Positions 23,864 to 55,921 of a stretch of 64,000 nucleotides of DNA are shown piece after piece. The translations under genes and the position numbers were made by a program. The stretch covers positions 1-64,000 of the forward strand of contig JAKLKB010000001.1 in assembly GCA_023150835.1 (NCBI GenBank). The letters are read 5' to 3'. The stretch's first letter is position 1. Each line of letters starts with the position of its first letter. This stretch comes from Myxococcota bacterium (GTDB lineage: Bacteria > Myxococcota_C > UBA6777). The notes below the pieces were generated by a model. It was not told the origin of the DNA, made no database searches, and saw only the letters and a program-made list of their open reading frames with translations.

Positions 23864-23974
23864 GGATGGGTCGTCTAGTGGTAGGACACCGGAAACAAGC
23901 GTGCTTTGTACAAAGCACCACAGCAACACCAAAAACTCACGCCGGTAACGGAGGTTCGATTCCTTCCCTGTCCG
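23864..23974 (+). ncRNA. tRNA-like RNA 1 (Glu-like body) with its anticodon loop expanded by a hairpin + CACAGCAA insert
   Basis: Acceptor GGATGGG/CCTGTCC, D arm GTCTAGTGGTAGGAC, stem CCGG/CCGG, T arm GGAGG-TTCGATT-CCTTC. Insert hairpin GTGCTTTGTACAAAGCAC at 23901-23918. Confidence 0.85.
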
Positions 23975-24041
23975 TTTTTCAAAGAGTCGCGTTGCCTTGT
24001 TTCCGCATTCTTCGCTGTTTGCGCGGGTGTGGAAACACGAT

Positions 24042-24149
24042 GGAGAAGTAGCTCAGTTGGTAGAGCAATGATCATGTGTGTCTTGTACAAGACACCACAG
24101 CAAACCTTTTGGCATTCATGGGTCGCGGGTTCGAACCCCGCCTTCTCCA
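24042..24149 (+). ncRNA. tRNA-like RNA 2 with the same type of anticodon-arm insert
   Basis: Acceptor GGAGAAG/CTTCTCC, D arm GCTCAGTTGGTAGAGC, stem ATGA/TCAT, T arm GCGGG-TTCGAAC-CCCGC. Insert hairpin GTGTCTTGTACAAGACAC at 24078-24095, then CACAGCAA. Confidence 0.85.
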
Positions 24150-24258
24150 CATCGTTTTTTTCCCGCTGTTCTCGCCTGTATCACCACCTTTACGACACCT
24201 TCGCCCTCCCCGTGTGATCGCGCTCCCCACATCATCGCCCTTCTCTCAGGCTCGTCGA

Positions 24259-24729
24259 TCACGGCTGCTTGGGCGTGAAGACAAGATATTTGCTACCGAG
24301 AAAGTTGAACAACGAGGCATTAAAGATCCCGATAAAATTGGCGACGTAGGACAACGGCAGCCATGCCATCTGCAAAGGGCCGATGGCAAGGTGTTTTTGG
24401 GGGGTCATGCCAAGATATTCGATCAGGAGGTGCATACTGCCGATCCGAACGCCTAGACCCAAGGCGCAGATCAACACAAACGACACATAAGAGGTGCGAC
24501 GCTCGACCTTTTGTTCGCGAAATGTGATCACGCGGTTGAGTTCAAAGTTCCACGACACGGCCACCACAAAAGCTGGGATCGCCGCAAGTCGCAAGTCCAT
24601 GTGAAAAAAACGATCACATACAACCAACACCGCTGTGTCGACAAAAACGCCGCTCCCTCCGATGATTCCAAAGAGAAAAAATTGCACGATCGTTTTCCAA
24701 CGTTCAGAAATGGGGCGAATGGGGGTCAT
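24259..24729 (-). CDS. GtrA family membrane protein
   Basis: QFFLFGIIGGSGVFVD, WNFELNRVITF and FNFLGSKYLVF. Confidence 0.9.
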   Translation of the reverse strand: MTPIRPISERWKTIVQFFLFGIIGGSGVFVDTAVLVVCDRFFHMDLRLAAIPAFVVAVSWNFELNRVITFREQKVERRTSYVSFVLICALGLGVRIGSMHLLIEYLGMTPQKHLAIGPLQMAWLPLSYVANFIGIFNASLFNFLGSKYLVFTPKQP

Positions 24730-24882
24730 CTTGGGTCTTGTTCCTTTCTTGAACCGTCCTTGGTGTGGGCGCGGAGTGTAGGGGCTTTTCGTGCATTTGC
24801 CAAGCCCCTCCTGTCGTGCGCCGAAGAATCGTCACTTCGGTTTGGAGTACTTGTGGATGAAAAACGTTGGAGCACTTGTGGA

Positions 24883-25006
24883 TGAAAAACCCCGTGTTCG
24901 CGCTACCTCAAGCGACTGTGTCGTTTGTTTGAAAAACTTGCGATCACTTCGCCAACACGGGGTCAAGGGGCGATAGTCTAGGGTGGGGTCTGGGGTGAAA
25001 CCCCAC
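24883..25006 (+). repeat. Family B repeat copy
   Basis: AAAAACCCCGTGTTCGCG...CAAGCGAC...TGAAAA...TTCGCCAACACGGGGTCAAGGGG...GGGGTGAAACCCCAC. Confidence 0.88.
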
Positions 25007-25150
25007 GAACACGATTCAACGGCATCATGCCTATCCTGTAGAAAATACCGAAAAAACAGCCTATAGATCGTTTGGTGTGGCGATTCGTTGATGGTGTCGA
25101 GTCGACAAGACACTTTTCGCCCACGCTGTCGATCCAAACGCAACCAAAGG

Positions 25151-28054
25151 ATGCCCCGCGTCATGGCTGAACCGACCTCTCATCCAAAACCGAAAGAGGA
25201 TGGCGTCTTTGCGATCCTGTTCGATGTCTTCTTTAGCTTGATCTTCTTGTCTGTTATCGGTGTTCTGTTTGTTGCTTTTTGCGTGTTGCTCGGAAAATAC
25301 GAGCTTTTGATTCTTGCTTATGTGTTGCTTACGGCAGCGGTGGTGCGCCCGTTGATCTCCGAACAGCGCATGGAAAAGCTGCAAAAGATGGCCGTGATCG
25401 GCGAAGGACTCAAGATCTTTACGCATCTGGAGCGTTATTATCTACAATATCCGCCGCGTTCGATCTTTTTCTATCTGTTTTTCCCCATCACAGGGATCTT
25501 TTCATTTTTCTTTTCCAAAGAACGCGGACGCCGCGAGCTAAAAGCGCACTTTATCCTTGTGCAATGGATTCTGGTGCTGTTGCTGATCCAAGGCTTTGCG
25601 TCGTATTCGCGTTTTTATCAACACTTCCCTTGGCGTTTTGCAAGCGCATGGCTCTACATGGAGCTGCTTTCCGTCTATTTTCTCTGCAACTTTTTTGCGA
25701 TCCCTGCCGCCACGACGCCGATCCGCCTGAGTGTCACAGGCCGACGTATCCGCCTCATGCTGGTCTCTTTTTTCGCGATCGTGATCATGAGCGGCTTTTT
25801 GTGGGCCTACAAAAGCGGCGTGCGCTACGACAACTTGATCCCGATCAACATCGCGATGGATCGGCGGATGGACGCCCTCAAACAACGGGTTCAACTCAAC
25901 TATCTGCGCGCCAAACAAGGACTCCCCCCCCTCCAGCCCCGCAAGCGCAAAGGGCAACCCCAAACCGAAGAATTCTTCACGCACTTCCAAGATATCAGCG
26001 AGATGTATGTGCGCCATCTTGCGCCTCGCATCCTCGAATTTCACAAACAACACTTCTTCAATCCCACGCGAAAAGCCCACGAAGACTTTATCGATGGACT
26101 CAACAAGGAGTTCCAATCGGCCCTTCAGCGCATCTCTTCGTTTGGTGAACACGAACAGATCTTCCTCACGTTCACCCAAGAACCCGGTGATATCTGGGGC
26201 ATGATCTTGATGCCTTTTCGCGAAAACCTCTTTTATGCTTTCAAGATCGTGCGAAGCACTGCCCCGACCTTTCCGTCCACAACCCTGCCCAAAGAACAAG
26301 CCGTCGTCCATTTCTACCGTCGTTGGGAAGATCTGCCCGTGATCGAGCGCGATGGGTTCGTGCAACGGTGGGAGCGTGGGCGTTATCGCTTTGCCGCACA
26401 AAAGCGCATGGCCCGTGTGATCGTCGATTCCATGCGCGATCTCAGCCGTCGCACCGCTCCTGCCGAGCCTGAACCCACCGAAGAAGAACCCTCCATCGCC
26501 AAAAAAGACGAAGAGATCCGCCTAGAAAAGAGCAAAGAAGCCAAAGAAGAGTCCGCCTCCGCCAAAAAAGATCAAGAAGGCCAAACCCCGCAAGCCCGAG
26601 CACAAAAAGACGAACTCGCCAAACCAACGAACGAAAACATCGCAACCCCCCCCCGAACAGGTGCCAAAAAGACCGAATCACCCATCCGCCAAAACGCTGA
26701 AGATGCCGATGTCCCGCCACCTCAGTCCACAACCCCATCGCCCCCACCTCCTGCTGCGACGGCTACAGGCACGCCTACGACCACCGATCCTGCTGCTGGA
26801 AGCCCCCCCCGCCTCGCCATCTCCCCAAGACCCAAGCACCTCCGTCATTTCCCAAAACGCCCGACCGCTGGGCCGCGACGAGGGCGCCGTTTCGTTGTCC
26901 GCGATCTGCGCCAACCACGCCGCGCAAAACCACGCCCTTCTGCGGAGAAGTTCTTCCCACAACCACGTCGATTCTCCGTACTGATCGTTCCCCCAACACC
27001 AACCGCTCCCTCCGGATCGACCGAACCACCTGCGCCTCCGTCCTCTGCTGTGATACCTTCCGCTCCGCCTCAGACGGTGCCCTCACGAAAAAGCCCGACA
27101 GTCGCCAAAAAACGAACGCCTCACGTCGATCCTTCCAAGCCCGAACCCAAGAAGGCCGTCTCGCTGTCGGGACGCTCAAAAACCCGGACTCCCACCGTTT
27201 CCCCAATACACAAGGGACTTGGGCCTTTTCCTGTGATCGAAGCAGAACCGTATCAGCTACCAGACGTCCCAACTCTCCCCCACAATCCAGACGAACAAGA
27301 CCGCTTGCGTTCTCTCTTGCGCTTCATCAGCGACAGATGCGGCGAGATCCCTTTCGAGCAAAGCCGCCTTGCCGATAGCCTGCGTCTCGCTTTGAGGATT
27401 CCCAACCCATCGACATCACGGTCCTTCGCTTCCTCTTTTTTGTCGACGTACTGGGCCGATGTATGGGCTAAACCTCTCGGACTCTCCAATCTACTCAATG
27501 ATCTCCCCTCCTTTCCTGATGGGCTTCCCAAACATTTCAAAACACCGAAACCCTACCGCGAGATGCTGGCTGAAAATTGCGTATCCATGCGCCTTCGCGA
27601 GGTGGTACAGCAATTTATGCCCGACGCTGTTTCCGATCCGACCGCAATTTCCGAAAATCAACGGCCTCTTTATTACGCGAAGATCCAACAATCGATTCGG
27701 ATATTCGATTGGCTTGCGACATTTCTTCGTGAGCGGGAACGCTTTCTCAAGAACGCGCACACCCGTTTTCTTTCACAGCAACAAGAACTCCAACGTAAAC
27801 GCCGATTCTTTCAGCTTTACAACGAAACCTTGCGCCAACTACACCTCGAACGCGCTTTGAGCGCCAAGCTGCTCTTTGATCACTTTGGCGATACCCCGCC
27901 ACTTCCGCCTCTTTGGTGGGCTGATCTCTACGAGTACTTCTTGCGCTTGCTGCTTTTCCTTTTCCAACTCACGATGCCGATCCACATCCTCTTGATCCTT
28001 TATTGCCACATCCGCTTGCGCGAACCCGAAGACCAAGCCACCCGCACACCCTGA
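25151..28054 (+). CDS. Polytopic membrane protein of unknown function with a large charged/Pro-rich insertion
   Basis: Long ORF with several N-terminal TM segments and one C-terminal TM. Paralog of the next gene. Confidence 0.75.
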   Translation: MPRVMAEPTSHPKPKEDGVFAILFDVFFSLIFLSVIGVLFVAFCVLLGKYELLILAYVLLTAAVVRPLISEQRMEKLQKMAVIGEGLKIFTHLERYYLQYPPRSIFFYLFFPITGIFSFFFSKERGRRELKAHFILVQWILVLLLIQGFASYSRFYQHFPWRFASAWLYMELLSVYFLCNFFAIPAATTPIRLSVTGRRIRLMLVSFFAIVIMSGFLWAYKSGVRYDNLIPINIAMDRRMDALKQRVQLNYLRAKQGLPPLQPRKRKGQPQTEEFFTHFQDISEMYVRHLAPRILEFHKQHFFNPTRKAHEDFIDGLNKEFQSALQRISSFGEHEQIFLTFTQEPGDIWGMILMPFRENLFYAFKIVRSTAPTFPSTTLPKEQAVVHFYRRWEDLPVIERDGFVQRWERGRYRFAAQKRMARVIVDSMRDLSRRTAPAEPEPTEEEPSIAKKDEEIRLEKSKEAKEESASAKKDQEGQTPQARAQKDELAKPTNENIATPPRTGAKKTESPIRQNAEDADVPPPQSTTPSPPPPAATATGTPTTTDPAAGSPPRLAISPRPKHLRHFPKRPTAGPRRGRRFVVRDLRQPRRAKPRPSAEKFFPQPRRFSVLIVPPTPTAPSGSTEPPAPPSSAVIPSAPPQTVPSRKSPTVAKKRTPHVDPSKPEPKKAVSLSGRSKTRTPTVSPIHKGLGPFPVIEAEPYQLPDVPTLPHNPDEQDRLRSLLRFISDRCGEIPFEQSRLADSLRLALRIPNPSTSRSFASSFLSTYWADVWAKPLGLSNLLNDLPSFPDGLPKHFKTPKPYREMLAENCVSMRLREVVQQFMPDAVSDPTAISENQRPLYYAKIQQSIRIFDWLATFLRERERFLKNAHTRFLSQQQELQRKRRFFQLYNETLRQLHLERALSAKLLFDHFGDTPPLPPLWWADLYEYFLRLLLFLFQLTMPIHILLILYCHIRLREPEDQATRTP

Positions 28055-28074
28055 AACGCCGAAAAGGGATCACC

Positions 28075-29532
28075 ATGCTTCCATCTTCCCAAACCCCCCA
28101 TCAGTCCGATGGATTCTTTCGCAGTTCTTTGGATCTACTGTTTCGCTTTGTTGTGTTGTCTACGCTGGCGATCGTCTTCGCGGCCTGTTGTGTGCTGCTC
28201 GGTAAGCCCAAGCTCCTGATCCTTGCCTATGTCCTCCTTGCTGCCGCGATGATCCGACCGATGATCTCCGAACAACGTATGGAAAAACTTCAACGTCTCG
28301 CTGTCCTCGGCGAAGGTCTCAAGATCTTCACACACATCGAGCGTTATTATCAGAAGTATCCGCAGCGAACGCTGCTGTTTTATCTGTTCTTCCCGATCAC
28401 GGGCATCTTCTCTTTCTTCTTCTCCAAAGAACGCGGTCGCCTCGAACTCAAAGCGCACTTTATTCTTGTCCAATGGATCGTCGTTTTGCTGCTCGTCCAA
28501 GCCTTCGCTTCCGCAAAAGTCCTCTTCCAACAGTTCCCTTGGCCGATCGCAGCTTCTTGGCTCTACACCGAAACGCTCTTCCTGTATTTTCTGTGCAGCT
28601 TTTTTGCGATCCCTGCGGTCACAACGCCCATCCAACTCAACACCACAGGCCGACGTATCCGCCTTGTGATCGCAACGGCACTTTCCATCGCCGTTCTTTC
28701 CGCCTTTGTCTTTGCCTACACACGCGACGCACGCTACGACAACCTGATCTCCATCCACATTGCTCTCTCACAACGCATCGACGCGCTCAAACAACGTGCT
28801 GCCCCTCAACCCCTCGCTCAAAAAAATCCCGCTTTTTCGCCAAAGCCCTCAACCTCTCCCCAACCCGCCGAGTTTTTCGACAAACTCCAACACTTCTCTG
28901 AGATGTTCCTCCAGTTCTATGGGCCCCGTATCTTGGCGTTTCATGCGCAACACTTCCGACGCCCCGATGCCAAGACCCACGCACGCTTCCACGCCCAATG
29001 CAACAAGGACTTCCAAGAACACATCAAACCACTCACCGAATTCGGCGAATACAAGCAGATCTTTCTTGTGCTTTCCCAAGAACCCGATGCCTTCTGGGGT
29101 ATGATCGTTGTCCCTTTCCGTGATCAGATCCTGTTTTCTTTTGAGATCTCTTCTTCCGACGGCCTTCGCTTTTTTCGCCGTTGGCAAGACATACCCAAGT
29201 CGATCCATCCGCCGATATCGCAGCGCTGGCGTCCAGCCCTTCTTCTCTCTTCATTCGCTCCCCCGACAAACACCGCAAGATCTCACCTCCATCCCATCCG
29301 CCACTTCTTTGTCCCCTACCATCCGACCCTTCGCGAGATCAACTTCCCCTACGCCCTCCAAAAACGTTTGCTCTACGATTCGATACCTTCCCTCCCTTCT
29401 GCCCGTCTACCCGCACAACACGACAATCCTTCCTTCGTTGCGCGCTTTCTTCTCTTGATCCTCCAATCCATCATGCCCCTTCATCTGCTCTTGCTCGCCT
29501 TCTGCCAATTCTTCCTCCGCGACGATTCTTGA
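28075..29532 (+). CDS. Polytopic membrane protein, tandem paralog of the upstream gene
   Basis: Shares ISEQRMEKLQ, GEGLKIFTH.ERYY and FYLFFPITGIFSFFFSKERGR.ELKAHFILVQW. Confidence 0.8.
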   Translation: MLPSSQTPHQSDGFFRSSLDLLFRFVVLSTLAIVFAACCVLLGKPKLLILAYVLLAAAMIRPMISEQRMEKLQRLAVLGEGLKIFTHIERYYQKYPQRTLLFYLFFPITGIFSFFFSKERGRLELKAHFILVQWIVVLLLVQAFASAKVLFQQFPWPIAASWLYTETLFLYFLCSFFAIPAVTTPIQLNTTGRRIRLVIATALSIAVLSAFVFAYTRDARYDNLISIHIALSQRIDALKQRAAPQPLAQKNPAFSPKPSTSPQPAEFFDKLQHFSEMFLQFYGPRILAFHAQHFRRPDAKTHARFHAQCNKDFQEHIKPLTEFGEYKQIFLVLSQEPDAFWGMIVVPFRDQILFSFEISSSDGLRFFRRWQDIPKSIHPPISQRWRPALLLSSFAPPTNTARSHLHPIRHFFVPYHPTLREINFPYALQKRLLYDSIPSLPSARLPAQHDNPSFVARFLLLILQSIMPLHLLLLAFCQFFLRDDS

Positions 29533-29731
29533 TCCTTCTGTTTTCCTCATCTCTACAAGTAGATTTCGGCCATTTCATCGTAAAAAATCTTTCATTCTTC
29601 AAGCGTTGCAAAAAATACCGTTGCTCTCTTCTTTCGACTCTGCTATCCACAACGAGAGGTATTGCAAAAACCAAGAAAGCATCTATCAGAATTTATACGA
29701 TACGCTCCAACAGAGCAGGGAATGGTGTTTG

Positions 29732-32700
29732 ATGTTTCGCCGAATCCGCCTCCAAATTCGTCTGATTTTTTTTAGTTTGTGTGTCGTCGCTTTGATCGTT
29801 TCCTCTTGCACTTGCGCAGGTTCCGAGCGTTGCCAAGGCGACGCAGGCAAGACCAACACGGACACCAGCGGCCTTCCTTGCGAGCAAACCTGCGACTGCA
29901 GCAATCAAAGCTACGAAGGGTACTGCATCGCTGGAAAGTGTACTTCCTTTGCGCGCCAAAGCTGCACCTTGATCGGTTCGCGTGTCCCTTGTCGCCTCGG
30001 ACTTCTCGTCGATCAAAAGAAAAACTGCGAGTGGGGCGAGCGTACCTGCAAGCCCGATTATCTGACCAATGCTTTGTGGGGAAATTGCGTCCCTTACGAG
30101 ATCGTCAAAGAAGAAGGCTCCGATCCTGCCAAAGCTGCCGAACAGTGCAGCAACGGCAAGGATGACGACTGCGACGGCCTGATCGATGCTGCGGACGACG
30201 GTTGTAAGGCGTACTGCAAACAGCCCGGCGAGCGCCGCCCCTGCTACGAAGTCCCCGTCGATCAAAAAGACGTTCTGAACCAAGGACGCTGTGCGCCCGG
30301 CCTCCAGCGCTGCAACGAAGATCGCAAGTGGGGGGCTTGTGAAGCGCAAGTCCTGCCTTCTGCCGAAACTTGCAATGGCGTGGATGACAACTGCGACGGA
30401 AACATCGACGAAGATCTGCCCAACTGCACCGCAAAGATCTGCAAAGAGGGCGAAAAGCAGGCTTGTTATACCAATGCCATCGGATGCAAACGCCAACCCG
30501 ACGGGCAATTCCAATGCACAGGTCTGTGTAAAGCGGGGGTACGCACTTGCACCAATGGTCGTTTTAGTTCTTGCGAATCTCAGATCACGCCCGCTCAAGA
30601 AGTCTGCGGGGACGGACTTGACAACAACTGCAACGGCATCCCCGACGAAGGCTGCCTTTGCCAAGAAGGCAAGACGCAAGAGTGTTATTCGGGGCCTACC
30701 GATACCAAGGGCATCGGAGCGTGTCTTGTGGGGATTCAAACGTGCCAAGATGGCCGATGGAGCGAGTGTCGCGGAGAACAAGGCCCTACACCCGAACGTT
30801 GCAACGGCCTTGATGACGACTGCAACGGCCAAGTCGACGAGGGATGCGGCACTTGCCGCAGCGGCGATGTCAAAGCCTGCGCACCCGCGACTCCCAATGA
30901 CAAACGCAACAAAGGGATCTGCCGAGACGGTTATCAGATCTGTAGTGGTGGTTCTTGGAGTGCTTGCATCGGTGAAGTGACGCCCGCATCTTCCGAGATC
31001 TGCGATGGTCTCGATAACGATTGCAACGGCAAGATCGACGACGATTGCAAAGGCTGCTTGCCGAATACAACACGCTCTTGTTATGACGACACGACTCCCG
31101 AAAGCAAACGTGGTGTCGGCACTTGTGCTGCGGGGGTGCAGCTTTGCGTGCTTGACGCACAAACCAACACTTACGCATTCGGCCCGTGTCAAGGGGCCGT
31201 CAAGCCCGCCCCGGATGACTCGCTGTGCGATGGCTTTGACAACGATTGCGATGGCCTCGTGGACGAAGATTGCCAAGAGACCTGTATCCCGGGTTATGCG
31301 CGACCTTGTTATACGGGCCCATCTGGAACCGACAAAACCCCCCCTTGCCGCGCTGGAATCCAAGTGTGTGTCCCTAACCAACAAACAGGAAAACACCTCT
31401 TTGGCCCTTGCCAAGGCGCGATCCTCCCTAGCCCTGAGATCTGTGACGGTTTGGACAACGATTGCAACGGCAAGATCGACGACAATTGCACAACGGGCTG
31501 CGTTGTTGGAACTTCTCGCTCTTGTTATACCGGCCCACAGGCGGCGCAAGGCAAAGGTACCTGCAAAGCGGGCCTCCAGTTTTGCACACGCGAACAAAGC
31601 GGAGAAGCCGCCTTTGGCCCTTGCTTCGGGGAGATCCTGCCGACTTCTACGGAGATCTGCGGCGACAACCTCGACAACAACTGCGATGGTCAAGTCGACG
31701 AAAAGTGTGCTTGTAAACTCGGAACCGCCGAAGCCTGTTATACAGGGCCTACGTTGACGCAAAACAAAGGCACCTGCAAAGACGGAATCCGTGTCTGCGC
31801 ACTCGATCCCACAACAGGAACAACGGCCTTTGGCCCTTGCCTCGGCGAAGTCAAACCCGCCGCTGCGGAGATCTGCGGCGATGGCCTCGACAACAACTGC
31901 GATGGCACCGTAGACAACGGTTGTATTTGTAAGCTCGGTGACGCCCAAGCTTGTTACACAGGCAACCCCACTACCCGTGGAAAGGGCATCTGCAAAGATG
32001 GCGTCCAAATCTGCGGAAGTGACGGCAAATTTGGAAGCTGTTTTGGAGACACCAAGCCTGCTGCCGAAATATGCGATGGTCTTGATAACGATTGCAACGG
32101 TCAGATCGACGACAATTGTACAGGTTGCGTTCTCGGAGCATCGAGGCCTTGTTATACAGGCAATTCGACTGATTTGGTTTATAAATCAGAATGTAGGTCT
32201 GGGATCCAATGGTGCGTAAAGAACACCACAACGGGAAACATTGCTTACGAAACGACTTGCAACGGTCAAGTTCTCCCTCGTTCCGAGATTTGCGATGGAA
32301 TTGATAACAACTGCAACGGCATAATCGATGAGAGTTGCACTTCCTGTGAGCCAGGATTCATTCGAAAATGCTATTCGGGTCGCTCTGTGACGGAGGATGT
32401 CGGGCAATGCAAGTCAGGATTTCAGATATGCGAAGCCAACCGTGTTTTTAGCGCGTGTTTGGGCGAAGTCGTGCCTACGCCAGAAGTCTGCAACAACAAA
32501 GACGACGATTGCGACGGAAACATCGACGAAGATAGTTGCCACCCTGGCGAGGCCTGCACGAAGATCACTTATCCAGACGGTCAAGAAGGAGGCGTTTGTT
32601 TGAAGCGTTGCACGGCAAATCCAAACATTTGCCCGATCGACGGAACTTGTCAACCCAATACTCTTTTGACGAATGGCGCAAGAACCTCTGTTTGCGGCCA

Positions 32701-32758
32701 TTGTCAGCAAGACAGCGATTGCAACGGAAAAGCGTGCATAAACAACCATTGCCAATGA
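29732..32758 (+). CDS. Secreted/lipoprotein with many Cys-rich putative metal-binding (MopE-related) repeats
   Basis: More than ten E.C.G.DN.C.G..DE motifs alternating with CY.G....G.C..G.Q.C modules. Signal peptide present. Confidence 0.9.
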   Translation: MFRRIRLQIRLIFFSLCVVALIVSSCTCAGSERCQGDAGKTNTDTSGLPCEQTCDCSNQSYEGYCIAGKCTSFARQSCTLIGSRVPCRLGLLVDQKKNCEWGERTCKPDYLTNALWGNCVPYEIVKEEGSDPAKAAEQCSNGKDDDCDGLIDAADDGCKAYCKQPGERRPCYEVPVDQKDVLNQGRCAPGLQRCNEDRKWGACEAQVLPSAETCNGVDDNCDGNIDEDLPNCTAKICKEGEKQACYTNAIGCKRQPDGQFQCTGLCKAGVRTCTNGRFSSCESQITPAQEVCGDGLDNNCNGIPDEGCLCQEGKTQECYSGPTDTKGIGACLVGIQTCQDGRWSECRGEQGPTPERCNGLDDDCNGQVDEGCGTCRSGDVKACAPATPNDKRNKGICRDGYQICSGGSWSACIGEVTPASSEICDGLDNDCNGKIDDDCKGCLPNTTRSCYDDTTPESKRGVGTCAAGVQLCVLDAQTNTYAFGPCQGAVKPAPDDSLCDGFDNDCDGLVDEDCQETCIPGYARPCYTGPSGTDKTPPCRAGIQVCVPNQQTGKHLFGPCQGAILPSPEICDGLDNDCNGKIDDNCTTGCVVGTSRSCYTGPQAAQGKGTCKAGLQFCTREQSGEAAFGPCFGEILPTSTEICGDNLDNNCDGQVDEKCACKLGTAEACYTGPTLTQNKGTCKDGIRVCALDPTTGTTAFGPCLGEVKPAAAEICGDGLDNNCDGTVDNGCICKLGDAQACYTGNPTTRGKGICKDGVQICGSDGKFGSCFGDTKPAAEICDGLDNDCNGQIDDNCTGCVLGASRPCYTGNSTDLVYKSECRSGIQWCVKNTTTGNIAYETTCNGQVLPRSEICDGIDNNCNGIIDESCTSCEPGFIRKCYSGRSVTEDVGQCKSGFQICEANRVFSACLGEVVPTPEVCNNKDDDCDGNIDEDSCHPGEACTKITYPDGQEGGVCLKRCTANPNICPIDGTCQPNTLLTNGARTSVCGHCQQDSDCNGKACINNHCQ

Positions 32759-32775
32759 GAACAGGCGATTTGTCA

Positions 32776-32900
32776 ACAAAAAAGCCGTGTTCGCGGCACT
32801 CCAAGCGACACAGTCGTTTGTGTGAAAATCCTGTGCTGTCTTCGCCAACACGGGGTCAAGGGGACGCAGTTCTCTTGCGGGCGTGGGGTTCCAACCCCAC
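32776..32900 (+). repeat. Family B repeat copy
   Basis: AAAAAAGCCGTGTTCGCG...CAAGCGAC...TTCGCCAACACGGGGTCAAGGGG...GTGGGGTTCCAACCCCAC. Confidence 0.88.
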
Positions 32901-32999
32901 AAAACAAAAACAACGGCGTCGCGTTAAGAAGAAAAGGGACTGCTGCCGAGAAGAAAAGGGAGCATGATGCACAGCACACAACATCAAGGAGATGAGTCG

Positions 33000-34979
<1,980 letters not shown>

Positions 34980-36189: not shown

Positions 36190-36191
36190 CG

Positions 36192-46568: not shown

Positions 46569-46632
46569 TAAATATGCTTCGCTCCTTTCTCTCTGCTCTA
46601 GCTTCCACCCCCCCAAACACGGACAAAAGACG

Positions 46633-49600: not shown

Positions 49601-49920
49601 AACCTGATCCATCGGATGAAAAAGATGAGATCGCTTACAATTACCTCGTGACTGCGGGGCAGCGCTTGTTGTGGACGGCATGGTCGCGCCACCTCAAAGA
49701 CATCCTCCCCCCCCACCAACTGCGCTTTCTCCAAGAAGAGCTTCCCTCGCTATGTGCCAAACTCGCCTATCTACGGTCTCAAGCCGCTCACGCTGCCCAC
49801 ACCACCACGCCTCTCCCCCGCCAACGCATCCAACAACTCCGTCAAGAACTCTTCCTTCGCAAAGATTCCTTGTTGATCCCTTCGCTTGCGCGCCCCCTTG
49901 CGACAACAGCCCTCCGCTAA
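46633..49920 (+). CDS. SEC-C motif + helical/TPR-like protein with 36-bp acidic repeats
   Basis: NEPCPCGSGKKYKQCC. (ALSSE.SDALHD)n at about 48530-48810. Confidence 0.8.
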   Translation: MAKTGANEPCPCGSGKKYKQCCRKQDIEKQPQKVRTRLSWESMLLAAPEEQAEIASSILRRGGFSPDQIRGWLGLAQLSLSRDTDIAKMAFEQGCRVAKTPEDWRELIHLAMEMDLLERAAEIMEAHVPREHDDTVKEWATRAFLLSHDRQWEEAAQLWGKQIEATQKPDFLWRWITCLRNTKQLDLLQAACIRAEELTQDPIWRIVWANAISLADREEEALSILHESFISALKTPADPSNSNTERTQREMILLEAGILYLTRLDHTERTVFLRVLLKRKVPPLTPLFEARSDIAALCSGWEELAQETTRWSANESSPKARWLRRVAQYIVNPATHPLDASTEIPAFWASWGTSLQNNLLHALLEKDALPLLDALFARLPLPQEESQLFLWATLRAKQSAWQPLAQALQPPPIPLTPRLAMLHALAILHSQGPEAAAPFFDSIETSEDTDLALSIDLWRVDIACRLHKEDQAAALLDHIATYTPPAQRSERYWVCRAHLAHRQKQLPEILASRQALFALRPNQEDFFVVAHTLALLERNHEAIAWLQQHRHSVRWNQDLSWLLACCAVHVEQWELASDALQTLDEAWISAPPPKKHLWPLRAHIASKCNRWLDTLAACERWESEKYPSDLSDNALSSESSDALHDALSSEPPDALHDALSSEPSDALHDAPSSESSDALHDAPSSESSDALHDALSAEPSDRVHEALSAEPSGGIHEALSAESPDSGRDVPSSEESGSAESFSDRPTDSDGEIASSPSLQDAEDLASLQELRRLAVQNLLLEAKHPWTFSMLSNRTNSEHHPLMPRVEAIDKEATQAFHQQQETLFEDISSEPKPPLQPHASDPENDTLSLLLSHPALPAYPLSDLPPSTETEALHPPEEQVYVEAWGEEVWAFLPKGTQQTFASAERLWTLLSQEEEADHAPILLQWTRGLEALLNLHLVDPLVFFAERRLSLHVQRDLPRLAGRPLQSYDNHIGLGSLPFLLVEQWKKPDPSDEKDEIAYNYLVTAGQRLLWTAWSRHLKDILPPHQLRFLQEELPSLCAKLAYLRSQAAHAAHTTTPLPRQRIQQLRQELFLRKDSLLIPSLARPLATTALR

Positions 49921-50002
49921 ACGAAACACACCGAAAACCAGAAGTCGTGAGTCGCTTTGCTTGTTTTTCGACTACTTTGACCGATCTGGAAAAAGGAGGT
50001 CA

Positions 50003-50115
50003 TACGATATCCGGGTGATGTGTACACAAAGCATCATTCGTAGACGCCCGATTCTTGGGCAGCCACACTTGTCTGCCCCGACCTCTTTACGATCGCACAA
50101 CGGGCGGATTTCGTA
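50003..50115. repeat. Family A repeat copy
   Basis: TACGATATCCG...GGGCAGCCAC...CTGCCCC...ACGATCGCAC...CGGATTTCGTA. Confidence 0.88.
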
Positions 50116-50309
50116 TGGCGTCCTGCGGCTTGAATCGGTGCGAACATGGGGTTTTGTCCACAAGCCAGCCCCATCGAGCGAAAAGAAAAGAAAAACTTTA
50201 GCGCGATCACCGTCACAATGCGTACACAAAGGACAAAACGACTTCTGCCTCCCGTCCAGCCACCTCTTGCTCAAGACGAGCGACCCAATCAAAGGAAAGA
50301 GTCCTCTCC

Positions 50310-53300
50310 ATGAGATTAAAAAAGAAACAGCACCGATCGCACCCTTCTTTTTTTCTAAAGCGTATCCTCTTTTTTGGGATCTTGGTTTCTTGTAGCACAC
50401 CCTTCGCTTGCTCGAAACTGTCTCCCGAGCCCAAAACCGCCGTGCCCACAGCCAAACCCGCCGCAATGAAACGAGCGAAACGATCCGCCTCCGACGAGGA
50501 CTCCATGCACTTAGAAGCGCGGCGCTCACGACGCTCTGCCGATGGCAGCAGCTTATCCTCCGCAGATCAGCGTTCACAGCGGGCTGCTGCGGAAGAGGCT
50601 CCAAGCCCGGGCGCGATCCCCGCACCCAGTCCCGCTAGAGCGAAAAGAAGAAAAGGCGGCGCAAAAGAAAGCACCACGACCAAAACCCCCAAAAAAGACG
50701 CGCCAAAAGATCCTCAAAAAGCCCAAGTCTGGCAGCGAACCGCCAAAGGCACTGTCCTGTCCAAAGTCTCTGTAGGGGGCGGCAGCTTCCTTCAACTCAA
50801 AAAGCTCCGCGTCACCGTACAAGTCGAAGGCTTGCGCGTGCGAACGATCATGGATCATATCTACTACAATCCACACGCGCACACCCTTGAGGGGACATTC
50901 AAGTACACACTGCCAAGCGATGCGTCGGTGTCCTATTATGCGATGTTTGTGGGCAACCAACGCCCTCAAGAACCCCGCTTCTTTTCAGGAAAATTGCCTA
51001 CTCCCCAAGCCATCGCAGCGATGGATCCCCAAGCCATCGCACGCACCAGTCCCAAAGAAGACTGGGGAACCCTTCGAGAAGCTCGTCTTGTGGCAGCGGA
51101 AAAAGGCCGCGAAGTATACGAAGAGATCACGCGCCAAAACATCGATCCTGCGTTGCTCGAACAAGACGCTCCCAACACCTTTTCGGGCCGCGTCTTCCCT
51201 GTCCCTGCCAACGGCCACAACCGCGTGATCATCGCCTACGAACAAACTCTCCCACGCTTCCAAGATCAGCGCGTGTACTCCTTTGCTTTTCCTGACGAAG
51301 TGGCCGGACTGATCGACTTTTCGCTTTCCTACAACCCACAGCTTGCGCAGCTCTCTCGCCATAATCTGCGCAAGATCCGCTGTATGCAAAAACAACAAAA
51401 GCATTTCGTCCGTTGTTTGTGGGAAACCGAAAAGCCTGATCGCAACGCTGATTTCTATTTCCAACCGACCTCGACCAAAGCGGCTTGGGTTGCAGGGATC
51501 GATCCCCTCCAAGATCGTCGCTATCTTTACGCTCAACTCGCGGTCGATCTCCCCCAAAAGAGCGCAAGCAAGGGCGCTTCGCAAGCGGTCTTTTTGCTCG
51601 ATACATCGCTCTCTGAAACGCCCCAACGCTTCGGCGTAAGTGTGTCTCTCCTTGAAAAGATCTTACAAAATAACCCGCAGATCCAGCAATTCAACATCTT
51701 GTTTTTTGATGTGGGGACACGTTGGGCCAAAGCGGACGGCTGGTTAGAAAACACTGCTCAGACACGCGCCGCTGTATTCAAGAAGCTCCGCCGCATCTTG
51801 CTTGAAGGTGCGACCGATCTGAGTGCAGCCCTTGAAGCCCTTGCTTCGGCCCCTTGGCAAGAGGCCACCTCCAAACAAGCGTTGGATATCTTTTTTCTCA
51901 GCGACGGCCAACTCAACTGGGGCAACCGCGATATCCATCAGATCCTTGGCCGCTGGTCCAAACAACAGCGATGGGGTCAAACGCGCTGGTTTGCTTATAG
52001 TTTCGGCCTTGGCAACGAAGACACCACGCTCTACCAACGGCTGACGCGACAAGACGGTGCGGTCTTCACTTGTTTTGGGGAAGCCGAGATCGAGCGTTGT
52101 TCGACAGCCCATACCCATCAAGCGATGTCACTCGACAAGATCGAGATCGAAGGCATCGAAGCGACCGAGATCTTGGTGGCAGGGCGTCAAACCACCCTTT
52201 ACCCCGGGGCTTTGTTGGCTTTTGCAAGTCGCTATCAACGCGATGGCAAGGCGGTGATCACGCTCAAAGGCTCTTTTGACGGCCAACCGATCTCGCTGCC
52301 TTATACGCTCGGCGTGAAAGCACACGGTGATCTCGCTCCCCGCGCATGGGGCGAGATCGCCATCGCTCAACTCGCCGAACTGGATGATCCCAAACTGACG
52401 GATCTGATCGTGGCTTATGCGCAGCACTTTCACATCCCCAATGCCCACTGTTCGCTGTTGGTTCTTGAGACCGACAAAGAGTACAAGCAATACGGACTCG
52501 ATCAACAGCAAAAAGCCCACAAGCTCGATCAGCTGGATCTGTTCATCCGAGATCTTTTTGCCCAAAAAGGCGCACCGATCAGTATGCGTGCGCGTTGGCG
52601 TGCGATATTTCGCAAAGTCCTCCAACGCGCCAAAGCCCTCGATTCGAGCGCAGGACGCGCAGCCCTCGCCTTGCTTCAAGCCGAAGAACAAGCCCACTTT
52701 GCCTTTGAAAGCCCTGTGATGGAGCAGATCTGGACCCAAGGCGACGTACCGAAAGCCTACCTTGCCGATCGCGACAAAAGCGCCGAAAACTTCGATCCCT
52801 TCGTAACCGAAGCCAAGCGCCGACTCAAAAAATCCAAGATCGGCGGAGCGATCCGCAGCTTGTCCTGCATCGTCGAACTGCATCCGTCCAATCCACGGGC
52901 GCTTCGACTTGTCGGATATTATCTGACGGCATGGGAGCGCCCCAAAGATGCGGCGGGTGTCTTCTTGCGCGTCCTCGAACGCCGATCTTTCGAGCCACAC
53001 GCCTTTCGCGATCTTGCACGCACCATGCAAAAGCTCCGACGTTACGCCCTTGCAGCCGCCCTTTACGAAGTCCTGCTTGCTGGGAATTGGCACGAACGCT
53101 TTGGTGAGATCAAAACCATCGCACGCGAAGAATACGCTCTGCTCGCTTATGAGGCCACAAACGCCCAACGTACCAGTGCTTCCGTCAAGGCACTGCTCGA
53201 ACAACGCAAGCCCTTGCTTGGGCTTTCTGTTCCCCAAGCCAGACTGCGCGTCACGCTCACTTGGAACACCGACAACACCGATGTTGATCTCTGGATCTAC

Positions 53301-53600
53301 GAACCCAACGGAGAGACCTGCTCTTACAAAAATCGAAATACCCGCAATGGCGGGGCTTTGCTCCAAGATATCACCCGAGGCTACGGACCCGAACGCTACG
53401 AAAATCGTCAAGGTCCATCCGGTCCCTACAAGCTCCAGCTCCATTTTTATGGCCACCGCTCCAACGTCCTCGGCAACGAGACCCACGCCAGTGTCCTGAT
53501 CGTCCTCAACGCTGGAACCCCCCAACAAGAGATGTTTGAAAAAAACGTCGTCCTCAAAAAACGCGACCAACGCGTCGACGTCACCACCCTCAAACTTTGA
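50310..53600 (+). CDS. VIT + vWA + TPR + DUF2135/YfaP-like lipoprotein
   Basis: LEGTFKYTLP, DPALLEQ, LLDTSLS, SDG, LTWNTDNTDVDLW.EP.GE and DITRGYGPE. Confidence 0.88.
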   Translation: MRLKKKQHRSHPSFFLKRILFFGILVSCSTPFACSKLSPEPKTAVPTAKPAAMKRAKRSASDEDSMHLEARRSRRSADGSSLSSADQRSQRAAAEEAPSPGAIPAPSPARAKRRKGGAKESTTTKTPKKDAPKDPQKAQVWQRTAKGTVLSKVSVGGGSFLQLKKLRVTVQVEGLRVRTIMDHIYYNPHAHTLEGTFKYTLPSDASVSYYAMFVGNQRPQEPRFFSGKLPTPQAIAAMDPQAIARTSPKEDWGTLREARLVAAEKGREVYEEITRQNIDPALLEQDAPNTFSGRVFPVPANGHNRVIIAYEQTLPRFQDQRVYSFAFPDEVAGLIDFSLSYNPQLAQLSRHNLRKIRCMQKQQKHFVRCLWETEKPDRNADFYFQPTSTKAAWVAGIDPLQDRRYLYAQLAVDLPQKSASKGASQAVFLLDTSLSETPQRFGVSVSLLEKILQNNPQIQQFNILFFDVGTRWAKADGWLENTAQTRAAVFKKLRRILLEGATDLSAALEALASAPWQEATSKQALDIFFLSDGQLNWGNRDIHQILGRWSKQQRWGQTRWFAYSFGLGNEDTTLYQRLTRQDGAVFTCFGEAEIERCSTAHTHQAMSLDKIEIEGIEATEILVAGRQTTLYPGALLAFASRYQRDGKAVITLKGSFDGQPISLPYTLGVKAHGDLAPRAWGEIAIAQLAELDDPKLTDLIVAYAQHFHIPNAHCSLLVLETDKEYKQYGLDQQQKAHKLDQLDLFIRDLFAQKGAPISMRARWRAIFRKVLQRAKALDSSAGRAALALLQAEEQAHFAFESPVMEQIWTQGDVPKAYLADRDKSAENFDPFVTEAKRRLKKSKIGGAIRSLSCIVELHPSNPRALRLVGYYLTAWERPKDAAGVFLRVLERRSFEPHAFRDLARTMQKLRRYALAAALYEVLLAGNWHERFGEIKTIAREEYALLAYEATNAQRTSASVKALLEQRKPLLGLSVPQARLRVTLTWNTDNTDVDLWIYEPNGETCSYKNRNTRNGGALLQDITRGYGPERYENRQGPSGPYKLQLHFYGHRSNVLGNETHASVLIVLNAGTPQQEMFEKNVVLKKRDQRVDVTTLKL

Positions 53601-53723
53601 TCCCACCGCCTTTCTTTGACCCCCCCAAAGATGATCTTGCTTGAATAGATCCGCCTCGTATCCGTCCCATAGGCGGAAGTGCGTTTGTGTACTTCCTTTC
53701 ACTCCACACGATGAGGAACCTCC

Positions 53724-54338
53724 ATGAAATCTCTTCTGTCGAACTTGTTCCGTGCTTCCGTTCTTTTTGCCGGCCTTTTGTTGCTGCCCGCCCCAAGCGA
53801 AGCCACCCCTGCGCCCTGCCCTCCCGGCTATTACAAATTGTTTGGAAAATGCCGTGCGAAGCTCTGCAAGCCCGGATGGCACCGAGGCCCCGCAGGACTC
53901 TGCGTGAAAAAAGACGCTTGTCCCCCCGGGATGTATCGCGTTGCGGGCCTTGGCAAGTGTATCAACAAGCCCTGTAAACCCGGATGGCACCGCATCAACG
54001 GTGTTTGCGTGGAAAAAGGCGCTTGCCCCCCCGGTATGTATCGTATCGGCGGCCTCGGCAAATGCCTCAACAAGCCCTGCAAACCCGGATGGCACCGCAT
54101 CAATGGCGTCTGCGTGGAAAAAGGCGCTTGCCCCCCCGGGATGTACCGTATCGGTGGTCTTGGCAAGTGTATCAACAAGCCCTGCAAACCCGGATGGCAC
54201 CGCATCAACGGCGTTTGCGTGCAAAAACTGCCTTGCCCCCCCGGGATGTATCGCGTCGGTGGTCTCGGCAAGTGCCTCAAAAAGCCTTGCTTGCCCGGCT
54301 ACCACCTCAATCCCGCTGGCGTTTGCGTCAAGAATTAG
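53724..54338 (+). CDS. Small secreted Cys/Gly/Lys-rich repeat protein (30-aa units)
   Basis: Signal peptide, then (CKPGWHRINGVCVEKGACPPGMYRIGGLGKC)-type repeats, ~4.5 copies with 90-bp period. RBS GAGG. Confidence 0.85.
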   Translation: MKSLLSNLFRASVLFAGLLLLPAPSEATPAPCPPGYYKLFGKCRAKLCKPGWHRGPAGLCVKKDACPPGMYRVAGLGKCINKPCKPGWHRINGVCVEKGACPPGMYRIGGLGKCLNKPCKPGWHRINGVCVEKGACPPGMYRIGGLGKCINKPCKPGWHRINGVCVQKLPCPPGMYRVGGLGKCLKKPCLPGYHLNPAGVCVKN

Positions 54339-54460
54339 TATCGAGGTGATGGTTAAGAAGCGATGGGATGGGGAGGATAGAAGCTGATTCGTGCGGTGCA
54401 TCAAAAGCGCCGCCACGATGAGGCGATGGGATGGGGAAAACAGGAAGCGAGGAAACGAGA

Positions 54461-55330
54461 TCAGCGAGCCTTAAAGCCGAATGCACCAGCAAGATAATCT
54501 TGAATTCCTTGGCAAGTGGCGTTGATGGCCGTCACACCTTGCTCCACATCGCGACCAACAGGACGGCGCAGCGGGCGCTCACCCTCACGTTCCACTTCTT
54601 CAACGAGAGCCGCAACCACTTCAGAAGGATCGCCCAATCCACCGGCTTTTGCACGTTCTTCAAAAGCTCCACCGAATGCTTTGAAGATCTCTGTGGTTTG
54701 GCCGTACTCAGCGGAGATATCGCGTTGAGGGAACAACGAGTTGGTGAGGAAGGTGGTTCCGTACGCGCCCGGCTCAACGATCACGCTTTGGATGCCGAGA
54801 GGTGAAAGCTCGTAGTGTGCGCTTTCTGCGTAGCCTTCCACAGCAAACTTGCTGGCCCCATAGATCCCCATAAACGGAAAGACGATCCGCCCCAACCCCG
54901 AACTGATGTAGATCACCAGACCTTTTCCAGAAGCCCGAAAATGCGGCATCACCGCATGGTTCATCCGCATCACGCCAAACACGTTGATGTCAAAGATCTG
55001 TTGGGCTTGTTCGATGGAAAAGGCTTCATCGATCCCCCATGTACCGACACCTGCGTTGTTGATCAACACATCGATCCCACCGAGAGCTACCGCTTGCGAA
55101 ACGGCTTTTTCCACCGAGGACGGATCGGTCACATCCAGTTCCAACACATGCACGCGGCGACCCTGCTCTGCCGCCCACGAACGAAGCGCCTCTGCTTTTG
55201 CAGCGTTTTTGCCCGTCACACCGCGCATCGTTGCGTAAACGGTATGGCCTTTTTGAGCCAACGCTTTGACAACATCAAAACCAAACCCAGCACTCGCACC
55301 CGTGATCAACACACGCTTTGCGTTATTCAT
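54461..55330 (-). CDS. Short-chain dehydrogenase/reductase
   Basis: TGASAGFG, NNAG, YGASK and EPG. Confidence 0.95.
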   Translation of the reverse strand: MNNAKRVLITGASAGFGFDVVKALAQKGHTVYATMRGVTGKNAAKAEALRSWAAEQGRRVHVLELDVTDPSSVEKAVSQAVALGGIDVLINNAGVGTWGIDEAFSIEQAQQIFDINVFGVMRMNHAVMPHFRASGKGLVIYISSGLGRIVFPFMGIYGASKFAVEGYAESAHYELSPLGIQSVIVEPGAYGTTFLTNSLFPQRDISAEYGQTTEIFKAFGGAFEERAKAGGLGDPSEVVAALVEEVEREGERPLRRPVGRDVEQGVTAINATCQGIQDYLAGAFGFKAR

Positions 55331-55721
55331 CGAAAACTCCTGTGGAATGAGGCTTCGCTGCGTTACAAAAAACGCAGACCGCGTAGAGGTTTACTTAAAC
55401 ACCATCACATCACAAGTGACATCTCTGTGAAAAAGATCCCCCAAACCACGACCCACACAAACAGCAAAGCCCACACAAGCAACGAAAGCAGAAGAGAAGA
55501 AACGAAAGGAAGAGAGCGGAGGGGGAAGGCCAGCCGAGAGGCCAAGCGTCAGGGGTTTGTGGATCGTGAAGGGAGACCGAGGCATCGAACGGTTTCTTGT
55601 CTGCCGCATGGCTCTCGAAAGAGCGAACACACGGGAAGAAAAGAAAGATCGGATGCACTTTGCGACCACAACAGCCCACCACGCACCGCGTCTGCCCGCG
55701 TCTTCGGCTGGCTTACCACTC

Positions 55722-55921
55722 CAAGGAACCAAAAAGGAGGTTGTTTCTGATTAACAGTCAGATGCTCTACCCACTGAGCTATGAAGGCTTACGCCTTCAC
55801 TGGGAGTCGAACCCAGGACCCTTTGAGGCCAGTCGCTCTGCCGCTGAGCTACGGAGGTTTTGGGCCTCCGCCGGGACTCGAACCCGGGACCCACTGAAGC
55901 AAAAGTCGTTGATGTTCCTCG
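55722..55921 (-). ncRNA. YrlA/Y-RNA-like structured RNA with two circularly permuted tRNA modules
   Basis: Minus strand, in order: CGAGGAAC; T arm, acceptor hairpin CGGAGG/CCTCCG, D arm; T arm, acceptor hairpin TGAAGGC-GTAA-GCCTTCA, D arm; TCTGA-CTGTTAA-TCAGA; then GTTCCTTG closing the terminal stem. Confidence 0.82.

Follow-up and report, generated by a model that had tools for sequence, protein, structure and literature searches.

The question raised by this locus is whether three tRNA-like RNAs belong to one family. They lie in a stretch of 64,000 nucleotides (nt) of a Myxococcota bacterium genome (assembly GCA_023150835.1, contig JAKLKB010000001.1, positions 1 to 64,000), which is referred to as the window and corresponds to contig C201 of our genome G000 (7.56 Mb, 93% complete). 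Two of them, RNA1 and RNA2, are found at 24 kb directly after a gene encoding a DUF2828 protein, and the third is found at 55.8 kb. A sequence-only reading of the window had proposed that RNA1, RNA2 and the 55.8-kb RNA are circular permutations of one design, and that the distant RNA could act in trans with the DUF2828 protein or a paralogue. All of the sequence strings quoted in support were found at both loci. Our analysis led to a different answer: the window probably holds two different families of non-decoding tRNA mimics, namely a DUF2828-linked class carrying the motif CAGCA, which comprises RNA1, RNA2 and a further copy on contig C193, and a separate YrlA-type RNA at 55.8 kb. The comparison within the phylum was performed on six species genomes from a genome collection, G000 included; among these, G002 is a genome of the same genus with an assembly that is 64% complete.

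Ro60 and its Y RNAs make up an RNA-surveillance particle that is widespread, and in bacteria the Y RNAs are tRNA mimics. The gene preceding RNA1 (22042..23673, + strand) encodes a protein of 543 residues that matched Pfam DUF2828 (E 2.2e-11) and DUF7788 (E 1.1e-20) only; the Pfam TROVE family (PF05731) was not matched. A sequence-profile search of the protein against the PDB gave no match, and the Ro60 relation is thus invisible to sequence methods. An AlphaFold model was obtained with 34 homologues (predicted local distance difference test, pLDDT, 81.6; predicted template modelling score, pTM, 0.81). When this model was compared with the PDB by Foldseek, ranks 1–12 were all Ro60/TROVE structures (Xenopus, human, Deinococcus Rsr and Thermus phage), with a best E of 2.7e-8. 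VIA-align against 1yvr gave a Z of 17.4 and a root-mean-square deviation of 4.6 over 419 residues, and its top ten entries were again all Ro60/TROVE, with isolated vWA domains next at Z ≤ 12. The DxSxS residues (D334, S336 and S338) showed no variation among the 34 homologues. As modelled, the DUF2828 protein has a Ro60-like fold, consisting of a helical ring and a vWA domain over its whole length.

The sequence-only reading had called for a search of the genome for other DUF2828 or TROVE genes. None was obtained: no TROVE PF05731 match was found in any of the six phylum genomes, a tblastn search of G000 revealed no paralogue, and the DUF2828 gene is the single Ro60-fold gene of G000. A second DUF2828-like match on contig C203 (26.4 bits) fell inside a multidomain open frame of 1235 residues and was judged spurious. 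Within the phylum, the DUF2828 gene was found in three of the six genomes (G000, G001 and G004).

RNA1 (23864-23974, + strand) and RNA2 (24042..24149, + strand) lie 191 nt and ∼370 nt from the DUF2828 stop codon on the same strand. Both are tRNA-shaped, RNA1 with a free acceptor end and a 49-nt insert replacing the anticodon loop and RNA2 with a 44-nt insert. The Rfam tRNA model (RF00005) scored them at 42.7 and 55.3 bits, both passing the gathering score of 29, and the fold z-score of RNA2 was -2.86; ARAGORN called no tRNA in the window. Each insert holds a hairpin followed by CA and CAGCA. The hairpin is GUGCUUU-GUAC-AAAGCAC in RNA1 (module at 23901..23925, + strand) and, as placed by the family alignment, GUGUCUU-GUAC-AAGACAC in RNA2 (module at 24078..24102, + strand), where the gene reads ...GTGTCTTG-TA-CAAGACAC-CACAGCAA-ACCTTTTGGCATTCAT-GGGTC-T arm.

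A pattern search followed by a covariance model of this closed form (R1) identified a family of 11 members, here family A, which scored 92–109 bits (RNA1 98.2 and RNA2 107.3 bits), with true tRNAs at ≤ 49 bits. Three members were found in G000, three in G001, five in G004 and none elsewhere among the six phylum genomes, a distribution that is exactly that of the DUF2828 gene. Eight of the 11 are tandem copies directly 3' of the DUF2828 gene on its strand (two in G000, two in G001 and four in G004), and three stand alone. The stand-alone copies are the third RNA of G000 (G000:C193:28636-28752, equal to L042 1458-1574), which is far from the DUF2828 gene, its orthologue at G001:C152, and the fifth copy of G004 (G004:C81); no neighbour genes are shared around them.

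The 11-member alignment showed covarying pairs in the acceptor stem (6/7), the D stem (2/4) and the T stem (3/5), and 96.4% of its cells were paired compared with 81.8% in shuffles. Judged from this alignment, the tRNA body of family A is under selection. The best-conserved part of the gene is the core G-Y-[GUGNNUU]-GUAS-[AANNCAC]-C-N-CAGCA, which is invariant in 11/11 members, RNA1 among them; its 7-bp hairpin is 100% paired, with three pairs changed on both sides. The bases after the 5' strand of the anticodon stem (AAACAAG, UCAUGUG, UAAACAC and others) keep neither a U33 nor a loop frame. Because the body covaries, the core of the insert is invariant and no U33 or anticodon frame is conserved, RNA1 and RNA2 are best described, on comparative grounds, as tRNA mimics that do not decode and that combine a free acceptor end with a conserved hairpin module.

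The motif, fixed from family A beforehand, was then sought in 80 phage DUF2828 loci, out of 277 viral contigs encoding DUF2828 relatives. It matched 52 times on the gene strand and 9 times on the opposite one, compared with 4–10 and 3–18 for six control 5-mers, and the tally of all 5-mers at the motif position likewise gave CAGCA at 52/9. In 33 phage and bacterial units the layout was a 7-bp helix with two bases and CAGCA after the 5' strand, in an open form of the helix. A second covariance model (R2) was built from 24 natural open-form units of phages and other bacteria and searched against 86 loci (80 phage and 6 bacterial). At E ≤ 0.01 it gave 59 matches, 59/59 on the gene's strand, a count that includes the 24 training sequences, picked for pairing, and several near-duplicate phage loci. 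The matches were spread over 31/80 phage and 5/6 bacterial loci, most of them in tandem directly before or after the gene, and true members scored 24–52 bits. The helix of the 52 distinct matches was 95.6% paired, with 7/7 pairs changed on both sides and a covariation of 0.921 against 0.298 in shuffles, in an alignment fitted to the model. The CAGCA module is linked on the same strand to Ro60-fold genes across phages and at least four bacterial lineages.

Among the bacteria, a metagenome-assembled genome (MAG) of the Flavobacteriales has four small units downstream of its DUF2828 gene (61% identity). One of them reads GAAGGACC-GUA-AGAAUAC-UA-CAGCAAUU...GUGUUCU-GU-GGUCCUUC. These units have the helix-NN-CAGCA layout of family A, the RNA ends where family A has the GUAS loop, and there is no tRNA body. 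In the fourth unit (L037 5700-6040) the helix strands are ∼300 nt apart and an inverted repeat borders the DNA between them, as if a small mobile element had been inserted into the RNA gene. Similar units, two in an Alcaligenaceae MAG and one in a Gemmataceae MAG, were found just upstream of the DUF2828 gene, and others adjoin the gene in G043. At the bacterial loci L037-L040, Rfam gave no tRNA or YrlA match at E ≤ 0.1, and R1 gave none at E ≤ 1.

At the Gemmataceae locus (L040), a Dus (dihydrouridine synthase) gene and a TruD pseudouridine synthase gene (1508-2686 and 6230-7258), both for tRNA-modifying enzymes, flank the DUF2828 homologue and its upstream CAGCA unit. Phage DUF2828 genes and CAGCA units often lie inside or beside tRNA gene arrays (L297, L242, L256 and L270), with nine tRNA matches in 4.3 kb at L297. 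A metagenome pattern scan for TTGTASAANNNNCCNCAGCA was discarded as chance matches: among 80 of at least 119 stretches, three had ≥ 6/7 stem pairs, and 0/3 of these had a T loop.

Both circular permutations occur within the CAGCA class. The phage locus L240 has an open-form unit (∼3227-3350) with the helix AGACCAUU/AAUGGUCU followed by C-CAGCA; at its apex this unit carries an entire YrlA-type module (39.2 bits), in which the 7-bp acceptor hairpin is closed. The open-form unit of L300 contains an anticodon-like arm and a T arm. At the phage locus L244, a closed-form RNA (2672-2788; R1 56.1 bits) was found right after the DUF2828 gene, with a tRNA body, a free acceptor end and the insert GGCGGC-AGUU-GUCGCC-CU-CAGCAAAAC. 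RNA1 and RNA2 are a circular permutation of the wider open-form design found beside phage and bacterial DUF2828 genes. The idea of a permuted design, which had been put forward for the 24-kb and 55.8-kb RNAs, is therefore correct for RNA1 and RNA2, since an open form with a closed acceptor (L240) and a closed form (L244) both adjoin phage DUF2828 genes; it named the wrong partner, as the open forms are those of phages and other bacteria and not the 55.8-kb RNA.

Two other explanations of the 24-kb RNAs were weighed against this evidence. If the helix-CAGCA elements were cis-acting parts of the DUF2828 mRNA, such as terminators or processing or regulatory sites, they would be expected where they are seen, always on the gene's strand and directly up- or downstream of it, and the T-runs after RNA1, RNA2 and many phage units would also be in keeping with that role. 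We regard this as very unlikely, given the tandem arrays of two to four units, the copies on G000:C193 and G004:C81 that stand far from the gene, and the complete tRNA bodies with covarying acceptor stems that some units carry; the look-alike Class I RNAs of Dictyostelium are moreover described as abundant stable small RNAs in the accessible part of Kjellin et al. (2021, PMC7919456). True tRNAs with an unusual spliced-out intron would explain why both RNAs pass the Rfam gathering score and have 7-bp acceptor stems with full D and T arms. That explanation is hardly credible for genes in which ARAGORN sees no tRNA, no U33 or loop frame is kept after the 5' anticodon-stem strand and the supposed intron is the most conserved part, the more so as the insert module occurs alone, free of any tRNA body, beside DUF2828 genes elsewhere.

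The RNA at 55.8 kb is of another kind. The stretch first singled out (55722..55921, − strand) comprises a helix CGAGGAAC/GUUCCUUG around two tRNA-like modules, as seen in the minimum free energy (MFE) fold, in which CGAGGAAC pairs with GUUCCUUG. Module 1 (55831..55895, − strand) has a T arm, a closed 6-bp acceptor hairpin and a D arm, and module 2 (55764..55820, − strand) has the same order with a closed 7-bp acceptor hairpin. The YrlA model (RF02553) scored them at 35.8 and 32.0 bits (36.4 and 35.8 in the whole-genome search), and the gathering score of 69 was not reached. Module 2 is followed by an intact anticodon-like arm with GUU, Asn-like (55746..55762, − strand), which was placed by the Rfam tRNA alignment at 55788-55699; in many genomes, true tRNA genes are 84–94% identical to this stretch. 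Upstream of the helix there is a 7-bp leader hairpin (55932..55962, − strand; CACGCAG/CUGCGUG in G000 and CGCACAG/CUGUGUG in G002).

Orthologues were identified in G001 (96% identity) and G002 (77%). In G002 both acceptor hairpins stay paired through changes on both sides, the leader hairpin is conserved with one pair changed on both sides, and ∼75 nt past the 3' end of the first-described stretch are also conserved. This 3' extension (55640-55715, − strand) holds a direct repeat of GACGCGG in two copies (GACGCGGGCAGACGCGGUG), which is kept in G002. The tract CTTTTGC is kept in 3/3 orthologues and, as read from the sequences, can pair with (G/U)CAAAGG between the two modules, with six pairs in G000 and seven in G002. 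An open reading frame (ORF) of 365 codons without a Pfam match (56044-57141) ends 123 nt upstream of 55921 and is syntenic with the 55.8-kb RNA in G002. Promoter and terminator scans at this RNA gave nothing useful.

RNA-library contigs of three studies span 55518-55979, 55523-55977 and 55542-55975 with no differences, and all include the leader hairpin; in a fourth run, a contig over 55388-56088 has a depth of 66 against 5–9 on the flanks. The locus is thus present in RNA contigs from four runs of four studies, which give neither strand, exact ends nor expression level, and stretches without contig cover in runs X17, X19 and X20 do not count as absence. Such agreement among three studies is a hint of a discrete transcript of ∼460 nt, likely 55518..55979 on the − strand. 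In run X20, a 126-nt contig with a depth of ∼12,900 overlaps 55749-55781 with three differences and does not resemble the flanks; it is the Asn-like tRNA of another organism, and the depth at 55749-55781 is therefore no measure of the 55.8-kb RNA.

Other parts of this RNA also score as weak tRNAs, namely the part from D arm 1 to T arm 2 (30.5 bits) and the last part with D arm 2, the anticodon arm and a degenerate T arm (35.3 bits). The 55.8-kb RNA therefore probably derives from a tandem tRNA gene array, judging by these alignments, and such an array is the origin proposed for YrlA in the accessible part of Wang et al. (2018, 10.1101/312249). Related YrlA-like RNAs were found at G004:C127 and, as a pair with an orthologue in G001, on contig C64; UCAACGA is common to three loci, that at 55.8 kb included, and no neighbour gene is common to the three YrlA-like loci. 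The two C64 RNAs are in tandem (G000:C64:15680-16000, − strand, equal to L084 ∼6690-7010; fold z-score -3.41; orthologue in G001:C306). The first lies within UUGGGAGC/GCUCCCAA, with CGAAA next, and the second within GAGUCGA/UCGGCUC, with CAUCAACGA before it. All RF02553 matches of G000 outside C201 and C64 were tandem true tRNA genes and were set aside. The 55.8-kb RNA is an orphan double YrlA-like transcript, belonging to a separate local family with UCAACGA and without the CAGCA module.

The proposed kinship with RNA2 was examined over the segment between the hairpin loop and the T arm, which is contiguous in both topologies and needs no rearranging. On the minus strand, 55921..55722 reads CGAGGAAC-ATCAACGA-CTTTTGCTTCAGT-GGGTC-T arm ... 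GTTCCTTG, and the counterpart of the helix-CAGCA module would be the CGAGGAAC-AUCAACGA region. Likeness beyond the tRNA arms was not above chance. Global alignment of the non-tRNA segments gave a score of 5 compared with 3.4 ± 1.7 in 1000 dinucleotide shuffles (p = 0.23), and the lowest p among 33 pairs (11 family A members by three orthologues) was 0.099. The weight matrix of the family A core scored -2.4 bits at the register of the sequence-only reading, a value equalled or exceeded at 0.46% of 15.1 million genome positions. R2 had no match in the window at E ≤ 10; with filters off over 55480-56020, its best score was 5.8 bits on the wrong strand, below the range of true members, and it found nothing in the related YrlA-like RNAs of C64 and G004:C127. 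A local R1 match (55919-55871, 15.8 bits, E 0.088) was rejected, as it covers mostly the T arm and places AGCAA on the AGGAA of the stem in another register.

Of the three features that had been read as shared, two are not kept within their own families. The stem strand ends in CTTG, said to close an 8-bp stem in both RNAs, in only 2/11 family A members, and the CTTTTG tract, so well kept at 55.8 kb, is present in only 1/11. In place of an NNCARCRA motif common to both, the 55.8-kb orthologues read CAACGA, CACCGA and CAACCA where family A has the invariant CAGCA. A part of the comparison that stood is the opposite topology, with an open acceptor and a closed hairpin in RNA1 and RNA2, and closed acceptor hairpins with a stem from distant strands in the 55.8-kb RNA. 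The useful result regarding the permuted-twin claim is thus a negative one: the 55.8-kb RNA does not appear to be the permuted partner and is an orphan in a genome without a Ro60 (TROVE) gene.

Several observations weigh against the division into two families with a DUF2828-linked CAGCA class. No R2 match lies within 1.5 kb in 49/80 phage loci, and the likeness of the flanks between family A and the open form is modest once CAGCA is left out, family A ranking in the top 2–30% of 15,445 genomic CAGCA sites; what carries the argument is therefore the layout, the linkage to the gene and the prediction test, with the training and near-duplicate limits on the R2 figures given above. RNA1 and RNA2 are known here from sequence alone. 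In a fold of the 462-nt transcript, the CGAGGAAC strand pairs with the leader instead, and the stem is therefore not secure in the full transcript. The 55.8-kb RNA also has the same general layout of helix, two bases and CA-N-C. G002 carries it too, and no DUF2828 gene was found in the G002 assembly, which is 64% complete, so that co-occurrence neither supports nor excludes a link to DUF2828.

That shared layout, a 7–8-bp helix, two bases and CA-N-C continued by a linker, an anticodon-type stem, GGGUC and a T arm, speaks for a single family in two permuted forms, with the 55.8-kb RNA as a trans partner that the DUF2828 protein holds by the same stem. The L240 unit demonstrates that an open helix with a closed-acceptor mimic exists in the CAGCA class, and the only Ro60-fold gene available in the genome, which lacks TROVE, is DUF2828. 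Set against the alignment, matrix and R2 results, this reading is quite unlikely: the counterparts of CAGCA (CAACG, CACCG and CAACC) differ among close relatives and stand at background level in the phage loci (6/10, 6/9 and 7/14 on gene and opposite strands), the 3' flank is GG and not YGU, and the locus lies 32 kb from the DUF2828 gene on the opposite strand. A looser connection deserves somewhat more credit and is still unlikely, namely that the 55.8-kb RNA is a YrlA-type Y RNA that contacts the DUF2828 protein elsewhere, at an Rsr-like site, through NCGA motifs, being linked to the 24-kb locus without belonging to the same RNA family. It would fit the YrlA-type modules, the UCAACGA of two other local YrlA-like RNAs and the lack of a canonical Ro60 to bind such RNAs in 6/6 phylum genomes. 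AUCGAGG and AACGAC near the 5' strand resemble the motif GNCGAA(N0-1)G that is reported near the 5' end of YrlA in the accessible part of Chen et al. (2014, PMC4201824). These matches are only partial, however, and vary in G001 and G002; the YrlA-like RNAs do not adjoin the DUF2828 gene, whereas known YrlA RNAs are encoded within ∼4 kb of the rsr/TROVE gene on the same strand, according to the accessible text of the same paper; and G043, which has a DUF2828 gene, gave no YrlA-like match at E ≤ 0.001.

The reading that we favour, two separate families, can be put as follows. RNA1, RNA2 and the C193 copy would locally represent a class of small RNAs that accompanies DUF2828 (Ro60-fold) genes and is defined by a helix of ∼7 bp of free sequence, whose 5' strand is followed by two bases and the invariant CAGCA. 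In the open form, seen in phages and other bacteria, the RNA would end at the base of the helix, and the variable apical part may be a closed-acceptor YrlA-type mimic. In the closed form, seen in the G000 lineage and one phage, the design would be circularly permuted, the GUAS loop capping the helix and the tRNA body opening at its normal acceptor end. In analogy to Ro60 and its Y RNAs, the helix-CAGCA module would be the part that the DUF2828 protein binds. The role of the tRNA-like part could then be to recruit tRNA-recognising enzymes or an effector, or to mimic a substrate, and the free acceptor end of RNA1 and RNA2 could undergo RNase P/Z processing and receive CCA, as is reported for cleaved YrlA of M. 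smegmatis.

The remaining features of the neighbourhood concern the DUF2828 locus as a whole. Before the gene, on the + strand, 20220-21996 holds a Peptidase_M54-like ORF and an ORF of 379 codons without a Pfam match. After the DUF2828 stop codon and before RNA1 there is a repeat of 122 bp with inverted ends (23697-23818), probably similar to a miniature inverted-repeat transposable element (MITE), with copies on C193 (L087 4213-4334, 86% identity) and C64 (L084 8131-8245, 76%). In G002 (G002:C17, L086), the electron transfer flavoprotein (ETF) genes, at ∼17-18.7 kb in the window, adjoin the orthologues of window 56-58 kb, and the 19-56-kb stretch with the DUF2828 locus is therefore absent at that position there.

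No report linking DUF2828 to a CAGCA RNA was found in the literature searched, which leaves out most subscription journals, and none of the papers retrieved for DUF2828 was about RNA by title or abstract. A family listed only as DUF2828 would have a Ro60 fold and its own conserved small-RNA genes, marked by CAGCA, as candidate partners, in many large phages and several bacterial phyla. As the same two parts, a putative protein-binding helix and a tRNA mimic, are built in both permutations, the class further offers a way to test which end of the mimic matters.

Among known systems, the closest to the protein is Ro60/Rsr with its Y RNAs. The DUF2828 protein, with its vWA domain and DxSxS motif, aligns with Xenopus Ro60, Deinococcus Rsr and the Thermus phage Ro60, and small structured RNA genes adjoin its gene on the same strand. 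It differs in its ∼12% identity, in the lack of a Pfam TROVE match and in the RNA motif, and the fold is known here from a predicted model. A survey of jumbo phages, in its accessible part, describes ROT/TROVE proteins with a tRNA-like partner in some phages, and a 2026 preprint, as far as its accessible text goes, describes three families of tRNA mimics. That YrlA resembles a circularly permuted tRNA has been described before (Wang et al., 2018, 10.1101/312249, accessible part). The 55.8-kb RNA shares with YrlA the order of T arm, closed acceptor hairpin and D arm, the tRNA-type loops and a helix from distant strands. It differs in having two modules and an anticodon arm within a transcript of ∼460 nt, in its sub-gathering scores and in the genome around it, which has no PF05731 or rsr/TROVE gene. 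RNA1 and RNA2 share with YrlA a tRNA mimic joined to a putative protein-binding helix beside a Ro60-fold gene, but have the opposite topology, CAGCA in place of GNCGAA and a DUF2828 and not a TROVE neighbour. In M. smegmatis, the closed 7-bp acceptor hairpin of YrlA is processed into two pieces, which leaves an open acceptor end to which CCA is added (Chen et al., 2014, PMC4201824, accessible part). The tRNA-like part of cleaved YrlA therefore ends as RNA1 and RNA2 do; there the open end arises from processing, whereas the RNA1 and RNA2 genes are themselves laid out with an open acceptor and a closed helix.

The CAGCA module also looks like the Class I RNAs of Dictyostelium. According to the accessible part of Kjellin et al. 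(2021, PMC7919456), these are RNAs of 42–65 nt with a short stem joining the ends, an 11-nt motif by the 5' stem strand and the conserved ends AAG...CUGU, and none was found outside Dictyostelia. Proteins obtained with them in pull-downs are GuaB, NdkC, DDB_G0281243 (of unknown function) and CIBP/Rnp1A (preprint 10.1101/2020.04.05.026054). The consensus of the Rfam family (RF01414) reads GaUcuCCUUACAGCAAUua...GagAuCUG. In their layout, the open-form units likewise have a short stem of free sequence, a CAGCAA-holding motif after the 5' strand and a variable remainder; the phage and bacterial units start with A-AG... and end with ...CU-GUU, and in RNA2 both ends appear joined by two bases (CUUGU-AC-AAG). 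The differences are that the stem of RNA1 and RNA2 is closed by a loop (permuted) and the RNA ends in a tRNA acceptor stem, and that Class I RNAs bind Rnp1A/CIBP, an RNA recognition motif (RRM) protein, with no known link to DUF2828 or Ro60-like proteins. RF01414 gave weak matches at L006 (30.5 bits), L240 (20.2) and one phage record (24.7 and 22.5), none reaching the gathering score of 41.5; on five phage and bacterial records there were two sub-threshold matches only, and G000 had no match at E ≤ 1. A homologue search from an amoebozoan DUF2828 protein had no Dictyostelium entry among the best 120. At the sequence level, the likeness between the CAGCA units and the Class I RNAs is one of design. 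We tentatively raise the further possibility, to which we give less than an even chance, that RNA1 and RNA2, the phage and bacterial CAGCA RNAs and the Class I RNAs are one ancient class that serves a second branch of Ro60-like proteins, that of DUF2828, as its 'Y RNAs', occurring in both permutations and with or without a tRNA mimic. If so, the Class I RNAs, so far reported only from social amoebae, would gain phage and bacterial relatives and a candidate protein partner.

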